Notes under the pieces: generated by a model
Database searches by the model: none
Told to the model about the DNA's origin: nothing
The model's input: the letters and a program-made list of their open reading frames with translations, nothing else
Program-made: the position numbers and the translations under genes
Origin: a bacterium
Lineage (GTDB): Bacteria; UBA8248; JACPRG01; G963555815
DNA: 64,000 bases
Reading direction: 5' to 3'
NCBI GenBank assembly: GCA_963555815.3
Contig: CAUVWX020000001.1
Coordinates: 1 to 64,000 of the forward strand
Shown here: positions 950-48,591 of the stretch, piece by piece
Numbering within the stretch: position 1 is the stretch's first letter
Layout: every line of letters starts with the position of its first letter

Positions 950-2251
950 TTGTACGGACCGCCGGAGAAGCCGGGCAGGTCGCGTGGAGGGCTCCTGGGG
1001 CCTCGGCCGCCGGAGATCGTGCGGTCCGGTCCCGGCGCAGGCCGGGACGTCAGGGAGTGGGAGACCGAAATCTTGTGTGCTTCAGAACCGCACGGCCTCG
1101 CCGCCGGGGCAGGGGCTCTTCCGAGAGCCCGGCGCCGTTGCGAGGCCGGGAAGCGAACGCACGGCCCCGGCCAGCGGGCCTGCCTGGCCCTGCTGGCCGC
1201 CACCGCGCTGCTGGCCCTGGCCGCGCCCGCGCAGGCCCAGACCGAGATCTGGAGCGCCACCCTCACCGCCCAGGACACGGGCAACGGCGCCCTCGGCTGC
1301 GACTCCACCGAGAGCAACACCGCAGCTCAGTGCAGCAACACCGCCGTCCTCTCCGACAACGACTTCACGCTCGGCTCCACTGACCACACCATCGGGATTA
1401 TCGAGCTGGCAGGCGAGAGTCTACAAATCACTTCCACCGGCGTCTTCACCGACGCCGACACCCTCGCCCTCGTGCTGGGCACCACCTCTCTCGCTTTTTC
1501 CCGCGGCGTTACCATCCAAGGCGGCGCTGGCAGGGTCTGGCCTTCTACCGGCCTCTCCTGGACCGCCGGCACCGACGTCAGCGTCAGGCTCATCTCCCTC
1601 ACCGCGCCCGGCGCGCCCACCGGGCTGGCCGCGACCGCCAACGGGCCGTCCCGGATCGACCTCTCCTGGACCGCCCCGGTCAACACCGGCGGCTCCGCCA
1701 TCACCGGCTACAAGATCGAGGTCTCCCCCGACGGCAGTAGCTGGTCCGATCTCGACACTGACACCGAGAGCACCGACACCGCCTACGCCCACATGGAGCT
1801 CGACCCCGCCACCACCCGCCATTACCGCGTCTCCGCCATCAACGCCGTGGGCACCTCCGACGCCTCCGACAGCGACGACACCACCACCGCCTCCACCAAC
1901 ACCGCGCCGACGGGCGCGCCGACCATCACGGGCACGGCGCAGGTGGGCCAGACGCTGACGGCGGTCACCACCGGCATCGTGGACGCCAACGGGCTGACCA
2001 GCCCCGGATACACGTACCAGTGGATCCGGGTGAACGGCACGGAGGCCGACATTGCGGGCGAGAATTCGAGCACCTACACCCTGGTCGACGCCGACAGGAG
2101 GAGAACCAATGAGAAAGATGATTTTAGGGTTCGCGGTCGCCATCATGCTGATGGCGGCATCCGCCCAGGCGCAGGGCGCCGTCTGGTCGGCCACTTTCAC
2201 ACCAGGCGATATCAATGGATACGCGTTCGGTTGCCGAAATGGCGACGATGA
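950..2251 (+). CDS. secreted FN3-domain surface protein; start uncertain, homology breaks off at about 2095
   Basis: Signal-peptide-like ACLALLAATALLALAAPAQA; Cys-pair N-domain; FN3 motif PGAPTGLAATANGPSRIDLSWTAP...YRVSAIN; beta-rich GQTLTA...YTYQWIRV segment ending abruptly at TYTLVDAD. Confidence 0.7.
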   Translation: MYGPPEKPGRSRGGLLGPRPPEIVRSGPGAGRDVREWETEILCASEPHGLAAGAGALPRARRRCEAGKRTHGPGQRACLALLAATALLALAAPAQAQTEIWSATLTAQDTGNGALGCDSTESNTAAQCSNTAVLSDNDFTLGSTDHTIGIIELAGESLQITSTGVFTDADTLALVLGTTSLAFSRGVTIQGGAGRVWPSTGLSWTAGTDVSVRLISLTAPGAPTGLAATANGPSRIDLSWTAPVNTGGSAITGYKIEVSPDGSSWSDLDTDTESTDTAYAHMELDPATTRHYRVSAINAVGTSDASDSDDTTTASTNTAPTGAPTITGTAQVGQTLTAVTTGIVDANGLTSPGYTYQWIRVNGTEADIAGENSSTYTLVDADRRRTNEKDDFRVRGRHHADGGIRPGAGRRLVGHFHTRRYQWIRVRLPKWRR

Positions 2252-3453
2252 CGCTGAGTGCAGCAACAAAGACGTCCTCTCTGACGACACCTTCACGGTC
2301 GGTGAGATCGTCTACACAGTCACCGAGTTCTACCAGACTAGTGGAACCAACAGGCTCTACTTTGCAGGCATCCGAACCCCAGAAGACGGCACATCCTGGG
2401 TCGATATAGCCGATGAACTCAAGATCGGGAGCACTTCCCTTGACATTGGCTACGCCTTCCTCTCACAAGGCCAGAACAGCACCTCGGCATGGCGCTTGCG
2501 TTGGTCTGGAGACCGAGGCTTAGACGACGTCTTAGGAGGTGACTCACTGACTGACGGAACCTCCATAAGCGTCACGCTTATCTCGGGCGACCTTCCGCCG
2601 CCGCCGCCACCGACCACGCCCGGCGCGCCCACCGGGCTGGCCGCGACCGCCAACGGGCCGTCCCAGATCGACCTCGCCTGGACCGCCCCGGCCAGCACCG
2701 GTGGCTCCGCCATCACCGGCTACAAGATTGAGGTCTCCCCCGACGGCAGTAGCTGGTCCGACCTCGTCGCCGACACCGCGAGCACCGACACCGCCTACGC
2801 CCACATGGGGCTCGGCCCCGCCACCACCCGCCACTACCGCGTCTCCGCCATCAACACCAACGGCACCGGCGTCCCCTCCAACGTCGACAGCGCCACCACC
2901 GGCACCAGCGTGCCCGGCGCCCCGACCGGCCTCACGGCCACGGCCAGCGGGGCCACCCAGATCGACCTCTCCTGGAGCGCCCCGGCCACCACCGGCGGCT
3001 CCGCCATCACCGGCTACAAGATCGAGGTCTCCCCCGACGGCAGTAGCTGGTCCGACCTCGTCGCCGACACCGCGAGCACCGACACCGCCTACGCCCACGT
3101 GGGGCTCGACCCCGCCACCACCCGCCACTACCGCGTCTCCGCCATCAACACCAACGGCACCGGCGTCCCCTCCAACGTCGACAGCGCCACCACCGGACAC
3201 CAGCGTGCCCGGCGCCCCGACCGGCCTCACGGCCACGGCCAGCGGGGCCACCCAGATCGACCTCTCCTGGAGCGCCCCGGCCACCACCGGCGGCTCCGCC
3301 ATCACCGGCTACAAGATCGAGGTCTCCCCCGACGGCACCTCCGGCTGGTCCGACCTCGTCGCCGACACCAACGAGCACCGACACCGCCTACGCCCACGTG
3401 GGGCTCGACCCCGCCACCACCCGCCACTACCGCGTCTCCGCCATCAACACCAA
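1603..3453 (+). repeat. four similar ~294-bp FN3-coding repeats (about 1603, 2616, 2910, 3205; the last is truncated)
   Basis: Recurrent GGCTCCGCCATCACCGGCTACAAGAT(C/T)GAGGTCTCCCCCGACGGC; units at 2616/2910/3205 spaced 294-295 bp. Confidence 0.9.
2109..3453 (+). pseudogene. second secreted FN3-repeat protein, frameshifted near 3197 and 3372 and cut at 3453
   Basis: AGGAGG RBS, ATG 2109, signal peptide MRKMILGFAVAIMLMAASAQA, variable N-domain, poly-Pro linker, three FN3 units; the third unit continues in other frames. Confidence 0.75.
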
Positions 3454-44256: not shown

Positions 44257-45171
44257 ATGGCCTCAGCGACGATCCTCATCGGCACTTCTGGCTGGTCTTA
44301 TCCCAAAGGCCCCGGCAAGTGGAGAGGAGTTTTTTATCCCAAGGGGGTCCGAGACGAGCTCGATTACTACGCACGCCACTTCAAGACTGTTGAGGTCAAT
44401 TCGACCTTCTACCGTCCTGCGTCACCTCAAACGGCAAAAGGCTGGGCCGAGAGAACACCCCAGGGGTTCCTCTTCGCCGTCAAGGCCTGGCAGAAATTCA
44501 CCCACCCTAAGATGTTCAAGGAGGCGACCGGGAGGGAGGCAGAGATCAGGCGAGGAGATCTTGATCTCTTCAAGCGGGGGATTGACCCGCTGATGGAGGC
44601 GGGAAAGCTCGGCGCCCTGCTTCTGCAATTTCCCCCCTTATTCATCTCCACGGCCGAGGCCCGGGAGGGACTCCGGCGCACCCTGGACTGGTTCAAGGAA
44701 TATCCTGTGGCAGTGGAGCTTCGCCACCGGAGCTGGGGGGAGGCGGCGAACCTCGAAGAGATTCTGGTCTCGAGGGGAGCAATCTGGGCCTTCATCGACG
44801 AGCCTAAATTCAGCAGCTCCATTCGACAGACCCTAAAACCCATCGGCGATCTTCTATACCTTCGCTTCCACGGTCGGAACCGTGAGAAGTGGTGGAAGCA
44901 CGAGACGCCGGAAGAGAGATATGATTATTGTTACTCGGAAGAAGAGCTTTTGCCTTTTGCAGAGGATCTAAAAACCATTCTCGCACGCCCCGACGGGCCA
45001 GAGAAGATTCTGATATTTTTCAACAACCACGCGAGGGCTCAGGCGGTCGCAAACGCCCTCATGCTGAAACACCAGCTCGGCCTGCCTTTGGAGGAAGGCC
45101 TGGAGGAGATTTTTGTCAACGCCTTCCCAAACCTCAGGGGCTTTTTGCCGAAGACAACCCTCTTCGGATAA
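44257..45171 (+). CDS. DUF72 (YecE-like) TIM-barrel protein
   Basis: IGTSGWSY; VEVNSTFY; LLQFPP; AVELRH; YLRFHGRN; FFNNH. Confidence 0.9.
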   Translation: MASATILIGTSGWSYPKGPGKWRGVFYPKGVRDELDYYARHFKTVEVNSTFYRPASPQTAKGWAERTPQGFLFAVKAWQKFTHPKMFKEATGREAEIRRGDLDLFKRGIDPLMEAGKLGALLLQFPPLFISTAEAREGLRRTLDWFKEYPVAVELRHRSWGEAANLEEILVSRGAIWAFIDEPKFSSSIRQTLKPIGDLLYLRFHGRNREKWWKHETPEERYDYCYSEEELLPFAEDLKTILARPDGPEKILIFFNNHARAQAVANALMLKHQLGLPLEEGLEEIFVNAFPNLRGFLPKTTLFG

Positions 45172-45200: not shown

Positions 45201-45588
45201 GGGGCTGAAGCGGGGTCGATAAGCCGGGTTCTGTACCCCGTTAAAAACGGGGCCGCGGCCATCCCTCTGGGAGTCCGGTTGCCCGGACCCTCTAGCGGCC
45301 TACCCGGGGACATCGGGCGAGCCACCCTCAAACGTCCCCCTATTTGGCCTTGCTCCGGGTGGGGTTTGCCGAGCCGGCCGGTCTCCCGCGCCGCTGGTGA
45401 GCTCTTACCTCACCTTTTCACCCTTACCGGGTCCCGGATTCCCGGGACCTTAGGCGGTGTACTTTCTGTTGCACTTTCCCTGGGGTCGCCCCCGGTGGGC
45501 GTTACCCACCACCCTGCTCTTCGGAGCCCGGACTTTCCTCCCCAGGACCTTCCGGTCTTGAGGCGGCCACGTGACCCCCTTCAGCCCC
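45201..45588 (-). ncRNA. rnpB: RNase P RNA (class A)
   Basis: GAGGAAAGTCCGGGC near the 5' end, AGTGCAACAGAAAG, and ACAGAACCCGGCTTAT near the 3' end; termini GGGGCTGAAG / CTTCAGCCCC pair (P1), followed by a T run. Confidence 0.95.
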
Positions 45589-45657
45589 TGTCTGTTCGTA
45601 AAAAACCCGCCGTTGCGAAGGGAACACCCCTGAATGTAATCCCTTCTCCGTCAGGTC

Positions 45658-45750
45658 TCAAGGGATCTTGCGTGAGCGCTCACTTGTCAAAGACAGAGCT
45701 TCTTCGATGGCCTGGTTGGCAAGGCGGTCGGCCCAGGCGTTTTCGTCTGC
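45658..45750 (-). pseudogene. rnhA: C-terminal remnant of RNase HI
   Basis: Startless host-GC frame ADENAWADRLANQAIEEALSLTSERSRKIP* matches the N..AD.LA..A terminal helix of RNase HI; expected position between zinc-ribbon gene and rnpB. Confidence 0.65.
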
Positions 45751-45758
45751 ATATTAAT

Positions 45759-46694
45759 TTAATGTCTGCGCTTTACAGGTCGAATCTCCCAATGTTCGCT
45801 TAGCACTTTCTTGGTGGTCCGAAAATGCAACTTCGCTACCTTCTTCAACTTATCATCCCCATATTTCTCAACGAATTTTCTCGCAGATATTTCTACCTTC
45901 TCTGATGCTCCCTTCGGCAAGGTCATGTCATACTTCTTTCCCAAACATTTGAGCCGACTCAAGAACTCACTGCGGGCCAAGATCGACGCTGCTGCAACTG
46001 CTACATCCGATTCTGCTTTAGGCTCCTGATATAACTCAATCTTTTTCCCTTTCTCCATGAGCGCTTTTTTAACAAAACTCTTGTCACCAAACTGATCCGT
46101 GAACGCATAGTTACAAGGTACTTTCTCCAAGATATTTTCGATGACCCTAGCATGGCCCCATGCCAAAAGTTTATTAACATTCCTTATATTTTTATACAGG
46201 TCGTTATACCTTTCTGGTCCGATCGCCACGATGTTCCAGGAAACTTGGCCTTTCAGGAAACCCGAGAGCTTATCGATCTCCGTATCAGATACGCTCTTGC
46301 TATCTTTAACCCCAACCGACGATAATAAGTCTACGTCATTCCTGTCCATTTTCACCCCGGCGACGACCAATGGGCCAAAATAGTCACCTTTTCCAGATTC
46401 GTCGGTCCCGATCCACGTCGTCCAGTGCGATCTGTCCCAGTCGAGTTTCTGCTGCCCACCCCTTTTAAACGGATACTCAATACCCAGAATATCCCTTAAA
46501 AATTCCTCAATGTTAGGTCCCTGAATAACAATCTTTCCTTTTTTATAAAAAATGACTGTAACATTCTCCAAACGTGCCGCATAAATCGCATGGTCCTTCT
46601 CAAAAAAATTAAACTCTTTCAATGCAAGCAGATTCTTTATCTCCTTGCCTCGCTCTTTTGTAATAACCTCGGTGTATGTTTCAAATTGACTCAC
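45759..46694 (-). CDS. rnhC: ribonuclease HIII
   Basis: N-terminal TBP-like TVIFYKKGKIVIQG; IGTDESGKGDYFGPLVV; GVKDSK; DQF; KAE..VAVAAASILAR; LPKGA; VAKLHF. Confidence 0.92.
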   Translation of the reverse strand: MSQFETYTEVITKERGKEIKNLLALKEFNFFEKDHAIYAARLENVTVIFYKKGKIVIQGPNIEEFLRDILGIEYPFKRGGQQKLDWDRSHWTTWIGTDESGKGDYFGPLVVAGVKMDRNDVDLLSSVGVKDSKSVSDTEIDKLSGFLKGQVSWNIVAIGPERYNDLYKNIRNVNKLLAWGHARVIENILEKVPCNYAFTDQFGDKSFVKKALMEKGKKIELYQEPKAESDVAVAAASILARSEFLSRLKCLGKKYDMTLPKGASEKVEISARKFVEKYGDDKLKKVAKLHFRTTKKVLSEHWEIRPVKRRH

Positions 46695-46711
46695 AGCGTA
46701 ATAGCTCCTAA

Positions 46712-47770
46712 TTACGGCGCATGAAAATACTCACACGACTCACGTATCTCCGTGGCGATTCGCCCTATGCGATCTCTCGCAGCAGTCATGTCTGTGACCT
46801 CATGTGCCCCCTTCATGTCCGAATGCTGGTAAAAGTGTCGGCAAAATGGAACTTGTGCCTTTAAACGGCTCAAGTAAGCTTTGTGATCCTTACCTTGCGC
46901 GTAGAAACTCTTGAGGTCTTTTCCCCAAACTCCGCCAAAGTTCCACCCCTGACTCTCAACTTCTGCTTGTGTCGTCAATCTTAGAGAAATGAGGAGCCTG
47001 GTTAGATAGCCCTCAAAGCACTTTGCTAGTGGCATAACTACGTAAGAATACTCTGGCAAAACCAAAGGGACATCTAAAAGTGCAAAAGCCGTCTCGGCGA
47101 GCTTTTGATCATATTCCGAGAGAAAAGTGTATGCCCTTCCTAGAGAGGTTTCACACCTTTCTCTAGCCTGCTGCCAAAGTTCTGGTGTCAACAGTTTCGC
47201 GATCGTGTCAACGCTTTCAGGATCGTGCGATACAAACCGGGCTGCGATATATGAGGCGTTCTGTTGGCCCAGATTTTCGACTTTCGAGCATACTTCATGA
47301 AATAGGGGCTCACTAATACCCTGCACCAACACCGTCCCATTTTGGTAGTACGTCAGCGTAACTGTCGCAGGGCCGTCCGAAATGCGGAAGCGATATTTCA
47401 CAAACTTCGAATCCTCCTCCAAACTTGTCGAGCGGGGGTCCGAATTAAATGCGGTATGGACTGACGTTCGGAGGCCATCGTCGAGAATCTTATAGACATG
47501 GCAAGATGCCTTTCCCATCTCTGAGGTTCGGGCTGCAACCGATGCCCCAATGTGAGACTTCAATTCTTCAGCGAAAGGAGAGTCGTTCGGTTGAAGTTGG
47601 ATACGACTGTTTCGGTGAATAGTAACTGTCACGGTATCTGTTAGATTGCTAACCTGGAGTTTGACATCTCCGTTAGATAGGTCCTCTCGTTTAATCTGAT
47701 ACCCCTGGGGTCCGAACACTTCCTCAGTAAGCAGCCCAACTATCGTTTCAACTGGCAGGCGAAAAATCAT
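46712..47770 (-). CDS. RnlA / RNase LS-like HEPN endoribonuclease toxin
   Basis: 352 aa; two TBP-like repeats (VTVTIHRNSRIQLQ, VTLTYYQNGTVLVQG); C-terminal LPEYSYVVMPLAKCFEGYL helix and Rx4H motif RHFYQH, the architecture of RnlA. Confidence 0.75.
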   Translation of the reverse strand: MIFRLPVETIVGLLTEEVFGPQGYQIKREDLSNGDVKLQVSNLTDTVTVTIHRNSRIQLQPNDSPFAEELKSHIGASVAARTSEMGKASCHVYKILDDGLRTSVHTAFNSDPRSTSLEEDSKFVKYRFRISDGPATVTLTYYQNGTVLVQGISEPLFHEVCSKVENLGQQNASYIAARFVSHDPESVDTIAKLLTPELWQQARERCETSLGRAYTFLSEYDQKLAETAFALLDVPLVLPEYSYVVMPLAKCFEGYLTRLLISLRLTTQAEVESQGWNFGGVWGKDLKSFYAQGKDHKAYLSRLKAQVPFCRHFYQHSDMKGAHEVTDMTAARDRIGRIATEIRESCEYFHAP

Positions 47771-47826
47771 CTATCTGATTTCACTAACCGAATTGTGTTT
47801 CGAGGAAGGATTGAAACGGAGATTTC

Positions 47827-48591
47827 TCACGCCTTCGTGTGTTCCGCCGGGCGGGCGGACTCCACGGCTTTGGGGGTCTCCTCCGGCTCGTAGAGAAAGC
47901 GGTTACAGTAAGGACAGGAGTGGATCTCCTCCCCATGGCGGACCTCATAGGCGAGCTGCGGGGGGAGGCTTCGGTGACACGCGGAGCAGGTCTCTCCATC
48001 CAAGGAGACGACAGCTCTGCCTGTCCGTCCCTTTCGCACCCTTTCATATTCCTCGAGCCATGCAGGGTCGACATCGATGAGAAGCCGCTTTCGGTCTCCC
48101 TGGAGCCAGCTGAGGCGCTCCTGGATCCGCCCGAGCTCTTCCTCCTTGGCTTTCACCTCTGTGGCGCAGTGGACCCCTTTTTTCGCCACCTCGGCCTTCT
48201 TCTCCTTAAGCTCTTCCCCCAAGGTCTCGGCGCGCTCCATCAACTCCAGCACAGAGGTCTCGAGCTTATCGATCCGGCGTCCTTGGCCCTCGATCTCATG
48301 AAGGAGGGCGGTGTACTCCTTGTTCGTCTTCACTTCAAGCTGTCTTCCCCGGCTCTTCACAAGGCGCTCGTGCTCCGCCTCTGACTCGGTCTCCTGAAGA
48401 GCGCGCTTTTTCTCCGCCTCCCTGCGGTTGGTTTCCAGGGCCGACTCCTCGGCCTCGGCCTCCTTCACTGAAGCCCGAAGAACCTCAATGGCCTCGGGGA
48501 TCTCCTGACAGGAGATCTCCTGGGCTGCGACCTCTTCGTCAAGGTCGCAAAGGGTTCTCAAGAGGCGGATCTGAAAGTTCTTTGTCCCCAT
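47827..48591 (-). CDS. coiled-coil protein with C4 zinc ribbon (DUF164 family)
   Basis: VKTNKEYTALLHEI; CSACH...CPYCNRFLY. Confidence 0.9.
   Translation of the reverse strand: MGTKNFQIRLLRTLCDLDEEVAAQEISCQEIPEAIEVLRASVKEAEAEESALETNRREAEKKRALQETESEAEHERLVKSRGRQLEVKTNKEYTALLHEIEGQGRRIDKLETSVLELMERAETLGEELKEKKAEVAKKGVHCATEVKAKEEELGRIQERLSWLQGDRKRLLIDVDPAWLEEYERVRKGRTGRAVVSLDGETCSACHRSLPPQLAYEVRHGEEIHSCPYCNRFLYEPEETPKAVESARPAEHTKA

Follow-up and report, generated by a model that had tools for sequence, protein, structure and literature searches.

Did this genome exchange one RNase H for another at a single locus, and if so, what was the source of the newcomer? The window, by which we mean the whole 64,000-nucleotide stretch analyzed (positions 1 to 64,000 of contig CAUVWX020000001.1), carries on its minus strand the gene order dnaG, rpoD, a tRNA gene (CAT anticodon), a zinc-ribbon gene, a 352-aa ORF, rnhC, a short startless frame and rnpB (Table 1). 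A preliminary description had proposed that RNase HIII replaced RNase HI in situ. This proposal is supported, since rnhA is intact in the only same-genus genome (G001) and no other copy was found here, and the active-site residues encoded by rnhC are complete. The locus has lost rnhA in place and gained two foreign genes.

Table 1. Features of the rnhC locus and its flanks
Feature	Position	Strand	Description	Basis
Zinc-ribbon/coiled-coil C4 gene	47827..48591	-	host gene, intact, left flank	Pfam PF02591, PF24481
Left junction	47771..47830	-	GTG opening a 19-codon frame; TAG directly before the ATG of the HEPN gene	sequence
RnlA-like protein, 352 aa	46712..47770	-	two TBP-like domains and a HEPN RNase domain	Pfam, AlphaFold, Foldseek
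RNase HIII (rnhC), 311 aa	45759..46694	-	TBP-like and catalytic domains	TIGR00716
Scar	45658..45748	-	startless tail of the host RNase HI gene: final 29 codons plus stop	identity to G001 rnhA
Candidate rnpB promoter	45633..45661	-	TTGAGA, 17 nt, TACATT	consensus match only
RNase P RNA gene (rnpB), class A	45203..45582	-	right flank	Rfam RF00010, 304 bits

The rnhA remnant and the two junctions

The gene order in G001 is zinc-ribbon gene, rnhA and rnpB, with rnhA (663 nt, specifying a 220-aa RNase HI; L033:7930-8592) lying between flanks that align with the window at 94.0% identity up to 45748 and 93.7% from 47874 on. Since only the rnhA tail is matched, 572 of the 663 nt are missing from the window, which holds 2,078 nt of lower-GC DNA (45749 to 47826) instead. 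The synteny given in the preliminary description was borne out in the best 30 of 40 rnhA matches: among the loci fetched, a zinc-ribbon gene lay upstream of rnhA in 30/30 and rnpB downstream in 28/30, the other two ending at contig ends.

The startless frame (45747-45658), previously read as the C-terminus of RNase HI, is the orthologous 3' end of that gene at the syntenic position. It shares 26/29 residues and 90/97 nt with G001 rnhA, keeps the last catalytic Asp, and scored above 500/500 shuffles against the RNase HI proteins of 30 relatives. It ranks first among the 54,059 six-frame segments of the genome, yet with an E-value of 0.11 on its own. The string 'ADENAW' singled out earlier does belong to the end of RNase HI, save for its leading Ala, which falls outside rnhA (identity begins at 45748). 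The GC rise past the rnhC stop was also confirmed, from 0.457 in the insert to 0.571 in the scar, the genome standing at about 0.60; GC3 is 0.49-0.50 in the insert genes vs. 0.69-0.75 in the flanking ones. A 2-kb GC scan of the genome did not pick out the insert at the threshold set. The rnhA tail likely survived because the candidate rnpB promoter overlaps it, the -35 box covering part of the rnhA stop codon. The promoter agrees with the consensus at 9/12 positions and its boxes are identical in G001; three promoter-like sites were found against 1.8 +/- 1.7 in shuffles, so the match alone is not above chance.

On the left side, a GTG overlapping the stop codon of the zinc-ribbon gene is preserved; in G001 it is probably where rnhA starts. 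Between 47771 and 47830 no rnhA similarity was found past this GTGAG overlap. The peptide EISVSILPR (47800-47826), which had been offered as the preceding RNase HI strand, does not derive from rnhA: 441/500 shuffles scored equally well against 30 proteins, the DNA-level score was equalled by 219/1000, and the match is due to chance. The boundary near 47826 is about right, although this match fails. We placed the junction at the zinc-ribbon stop because the last 15 codons of the zinc-ribbon gene in the window differ from G001 and look like the end of this gene in four other members of the family; for this reason, too, a breakpoint at 47874, where the BLAST match to G001 ends, was set aside. The same likeness makes the tail in the window look ancestral and host-derived, and that of G001 derived. 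The G001 gene (L033:7899-7933) has a different tail and is four codons shorter, despite 94% identity elsewhere. The old rnhA start overlap and the HEPN gene share a reading frame, interrupted after 19 codons by one TAG, and this 19-codon frame may be translationally coupled to the HEPN gene.

The insert is not an assembly artefact. Single contigs from three of four runs, which belong to different studies, cross both junctions ungapped and show 0, 15 and 16 differences, the run with none possibly being the source sample. Four low-share runs yielded fragments only, with no contig joining across the insert; no strain carrying rnhA was seen in them, though one may exist. An RNA run yielded contigs at 45560-45807 and 45869-46057, which are not evidence of transcription. 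None of the three spanning strain contigs shows a stop or frameshift in the HEPN gene, which fits either youth or selection.

RNase HIII and the RnlA-like protein

The rnhC product scores 235 bits against TIGR00716 (cut-off 161) and possesses the TBP-like domain at the N terminus, the DESG motif and all four active-site acidic residues (D98, E99, D200 and E228) of RNase HIII; it is predicted to cleave RNA:DNA hybrids. An AGGAG ribosome-binding site precedes rnhC at 46709-46705, unlike the ATG of the HEPN gene, which has no obvious one. In the catalytic-domain tree the protein groups with P0004 (0.998), then with stand-alone RNase HIIIs (0.78-0.88). Because it falls outside the clade of the operons described below, part of its ancestry may already lie in housekeeping. 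In the search for a donor, the nearest relatives were P0002 (46%) and P0004 (62%), whose DNA was not found in the genome scans, and the trees, among them the RnhC tree proposed earlier as a means of finding the donor, proved too weak to name one.

The genome (2.08 Mb, two contigs) is 95.7% complete. The preliminary description had tied its argument to the lack of another rnhA, and no second RNase HI was found using PF13456, PF00075, PF01693, a 30-relative profile, tblastn and blastn; given this completeness and the two contigs, a copy could lie hidden in a gap. It had also looked to relatives for an intact rnhA, and RNase HI is present in 39/40 of them, the equally small G001 included. It is single-copy in 5/5 family genomes tested. 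Both rnhC and the HEPN gene occur in 1/51 phylum genomes, namely this one, and an intact RNase HII gene lies elsewhere in the genome. The RNase HI of this family has an N-terminal extension of ~75 residues with a conserved helical motif (L033:7930-8592, L034-L038), which is apparently missing from most sister-family genomes.

The 352-aa protein matches Pfam PF15935 and PF19034, both just below their cut-offs. The top ten Foldseek matches to its AlphaFold model (pLDDT 93.6) are all RnlA or LsoA (best E 6e-11), with TM-scores near 0.39, and its domain arrangement therefore differs from theirs. Residues K250, E253, R311 and H316 are invariant among 42 aligned members and correspond by spacing to R255, E258, R318 and H323 in the account of RnlA in PMC8266594. 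The protein has the TBP-TBP-HEPN architecture and RX4H motif of the RnlA/RNase LS family. With E. coli RnlA-RnlB (RNase LS) and LsoA it shares this fold and motif and a functional link to an RNase H; it differs in being only ~14% identical, in having Lys where RnlA has R255, and in that its partner is a co-encoded RNase HIII rather than the host RNase HI. There is also no RnlB-like antitoxin gene: no adjacent small gene of this type was found, no separate ORF fits the spacers of 56, 17 and 10 nt, and no small neighbor gene is conserved among 80 related loci. A complex prediction for the HEPN protein with RNase HIII scored 0.00, which was counted neither for nor against pairing.

Related operons and TOTE systems

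A profile search with the HEPN protein gave 174 relatives. Of the 150 listed, 26 also have the catalytic domain of an RNase HIII within the one polypeptide. Links between RnlA and RNase H are already on record (PMC3710099, PMC7221094), and the RnlA-type fusions enumerated in PMC3710099 are to an RNase H fold or a TBP domain, with none to RNase HIII in that enumeration. A metagenome scan was made with an alignment of 18 homologs that left out the window protein; it returned 165 relatives, of which 80 loci were kept, these being only about 24-31% identical to the window HEPN protein. The gene rnhC follows the HEPN gene directly in 74/80 loci, and in 61/80 both are followed by a TPR-cold-shock gene, which is present in 63/80 overall. 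Nine loci end at a contig edge before the third gene. In four with room for it, the third gene is broken (L066, L100) or absent (L118, L127) and the HEPN gene is intact; two (L051, L054) have HEPN and TPR genes without rnhC, and four have the HEPN gene alone, of which three lie at contig ends and the other has rnhC in inverted orientation. The third gene encodes TPR repeats fused to a cold-shock domain and matched PADLOC model PDLC01170 in 6/6 tested. It is absent from the window and was not found elsewhere in the genome. The HEPN protein of the window groups, with weak support, as sister to the three-gene clade.

None of the 80 loci has an RNase HI, zinc-ribbon or rnpB match, and the rnhA locus is therefore not a habitual target. 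Restriction, GmrSD, TIR, AIPR or TOTE-type proteins made up 15 of 71 neighbor proteins, which were hand-picked from 99 cluster representatives and have no background control. Neither viral contigs nor plasmids yielded the module, which occurs in 1/301 genomes of one other class. This three-gene operon of RnlA-like HEPN, RNase HIII and TPR-cold-shock genes (L048-L127, L129, L046) often stands beside restriction genes; in PADLOC 2.0 only its TPR gene has a clear model, the two RNase proteins having none. In related loci, rnhC and the third gene are separated by about -4 to 22 nt. In the window an ATG lies 6 nt past the rnhC stop, a possible leftover of a TPR-gene start which is not above chance.

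TOTE conflict systems are named for TPR, OB, TBP and Effector components and often include RNase H domains, according to the summary in PMC12458937, which cites Aravind, Iyer and Burroughs (2022). The related loci resemble them in combining a TPR-cold-shock gene, TBP-like domains and RNase effectors. The L054 helicase carries the Pfam TBP-TOTE domain. This layout fits TOTE conflict systems, and an anti-phage role is predicted. The window has the TBP-like domains (two in the HEPN protein, one in RNase HIII) and the nuclease effectors (HEPN, RNase H) of such a system, but lacks the TPR-OB gene and so falls outside the class; it also differs in that these genes stand where a housekeeping gene belongs, within a core locus. 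The window thus holds a TOTE-derived fragment, consisting of the first two genes of the three-gene operon with the TPR gene missing. Since the 80 loci are distant and were found without the window protein, the TPR gene may have been lacking already in the immediate donor.

Two further loci are worth recording. In a 790-aa protein (L044:3288-5660), TBP-like domains and an RNase HIII domain are attached to a long N-terminal region of unrelated sequence, which suggests that effectors other than HEPN also partner the RNase HIII module. At L054:92-4706, a PIF1/RecD-like helicase with TBP-TOTE domains (PADLOC PDC-M16A) is followed by the HEPN and TPR genes, without rnhC.

Course of the replacement and its precedents

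The explanation that we favor, and consider reasonably probable, is that a horizontally acquired TOTE-type piece replaced rnhA in place, and that RNase HIII is now likely the main enzyme clearing RNA:DNA hybrids. The insert consists of two genes, without recombinase gene, terminal repeats, target duplication or, among those listed, a junction repeat, and is not an integrative or transposable element. Because these marks are lacking, it likely arrived by illegitimate recombination, either in one step or by insertion followed by deletion. RNase HI and HIII are described in PMC1950709 as having overlapping substrates and as mutually exclusive, and the cell likely tolerated the swap because the two prefer the same substrates. 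Transcription would probably be by read-through from the host dnaG-rpoD-tRNA-zinc-ribbon unit. Selection would then hold rnhC, and the HEPN gene, lacking the predicted TPR-OB partner, would likely be a quiet passenger rather than an addiction toxin.

Three genomes with a conflict-type RNase HIII bear on this point: G055 (a fused HEPN-RNase HIII and a TPR gene), G223 (three genes) and G053 (RNase HIII fused to another long domain). Since all three keep RNase HI, it is likely that in the present genome a defence enzyme was recruited to housekeeping. In three other genomes, with stand-alone rnhC and no completeness given, RNase HI was not found. This tiny sample (3 + 3 genomes) suggests that the conflict module does not normally replace rnhA. 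The cell could plausibly depend on rnhC, and such dependence would bind rnhC only and not the HEPN gene; it is softened by the intact RNase HII, which could cover part of the loss.

Doubtful, though not far-fetched, is that the two-gene unit is still an active defence in which RNase HIII stimulates or gates the HEPN RNase, serving housekeeping and immunity with both genes under selection. The equivalents of the RnlA catalytic residues given in PMC8266594 are intact, and two related loci hold the pair without any TPR gene. Stimulation of E. coli RnlA by RNase HI, as reported in PMC5308261, speaks for this reading. The pair seemingly occurs in one other genome, P0002 and P0004 both coming from a 1,504,650-bp contig in which their adjacency was not seen. 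However, the TPR gene is kept in 61/80 related loci, only rnhC is preceded by a recognizable ribosome-binding site, and the few strain differences among the rows listed (at least five non-synonymous and at least three synonymous) reveal no clear purifying selection.

That the event was near neutral, with RNase HI dispensable in a small genome that had RNase HII as well, and with the insert drifting to fixation without any dependence, seems improbable to us. RNase HII is indeed present, the genome is only 2.08 Mb, and B. subtilis is described in PMC1950709 as tolerating the loss of RNase HIII alone, single RNase H knock-outs growing normally. Against this, 39/40 relatives, the equally small G001 among them, keep rnhA, and its precise loss to a functional analogue would be unlikely were the function irrelevant.

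The stronger reading of the preliminary description, a toxic HEPN cassette made hard to lose by an RNase HIII acting as both antitoxin and R-loop remover, is very unlikely: the insert does hold no other candidate antitoxin gene, and RnlB needs RNase HI to inhibit RnlA (PMC5308261), but that same report has RNase HI alone activating rather than blocking E. coli RnlA, L051 and L054 carry HEPN and TPR genes without rnhC, and in the 26 fusions among the 150 listed homologs the two parts are inseparable, unlike in post-segregational killing. The HEPN gene is intact without rnhC (2/80) or without an intact TPR gene (4/80), which disfavors an addiction pair and argues that neither would be an obligate antitoxin. 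The term 'toxin cassette' is too simple, the two genes being a truncated part of a TOTE-type three-gene operon, with no RnlB-like antitoxin gene.

In gene displacement in situ, a resident gene is supplanted by one from outside, and the conserved gene order around it stays. The present locus follows this pattern, and differs in that the incoming gene is not an ortholog but an analogue (a type 2 RNase H for a type 1), with a HEPN gene alongside and a datable scar. A switch between close relatives from RNase HI and HII to RNase HII and HIII is covered by the 2007 study (PMC1950709), which counts gene combinations and proposes loss through redundancy; that treatment is not known to include a same-locus case, scar or defence-operon source. 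The exclusion of HI and HIII, in-place displacement, RnlA-RNase H links and TOTE systems are thus already known. Our literature search found no description of the HEPN-RNase HIII operon or of a same-locus swap of RNase HI for HIII, and the 2022 TOTE review may cover the operon.

The exclusion has so far been argued from gene counts. At this locus one such switch can be seen directly, in a pair of species whose flanks are 94% identical: the tail of the old gene is still legible, and the new enzyme can be traced to a predicted defence module. A bolder and rather unlikely view is that HEPN-RNase HIII-TPR operons form a mobile reservoir on which bacteria draw for housekeeping RNase HIII, and that in this genome, as a recent case, rnhA was overwritten by a defence enzyme that now clears R-loops and still gates the HEPN RNase. 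If true, an immune nuclease would be wired to a needed cell function, and mutual exclusion of HI and HIII would have a concrete route. Two questions become testable: is a defence-type RNase HIII capable of housekeeping work, and how does the recurrent HEPN-RNase HIII-TPR operon come to be switched on?

Near the contig start, the window contains several imperfect direct repeats of 250-560 nt (1600-3450). Next to rnpB, the window has an unbroken DUF72 gene (44257-45171, 304 aa), whose counterpart in G001 appears broken or shortened (181-aa ORF, L033:9483-10028).
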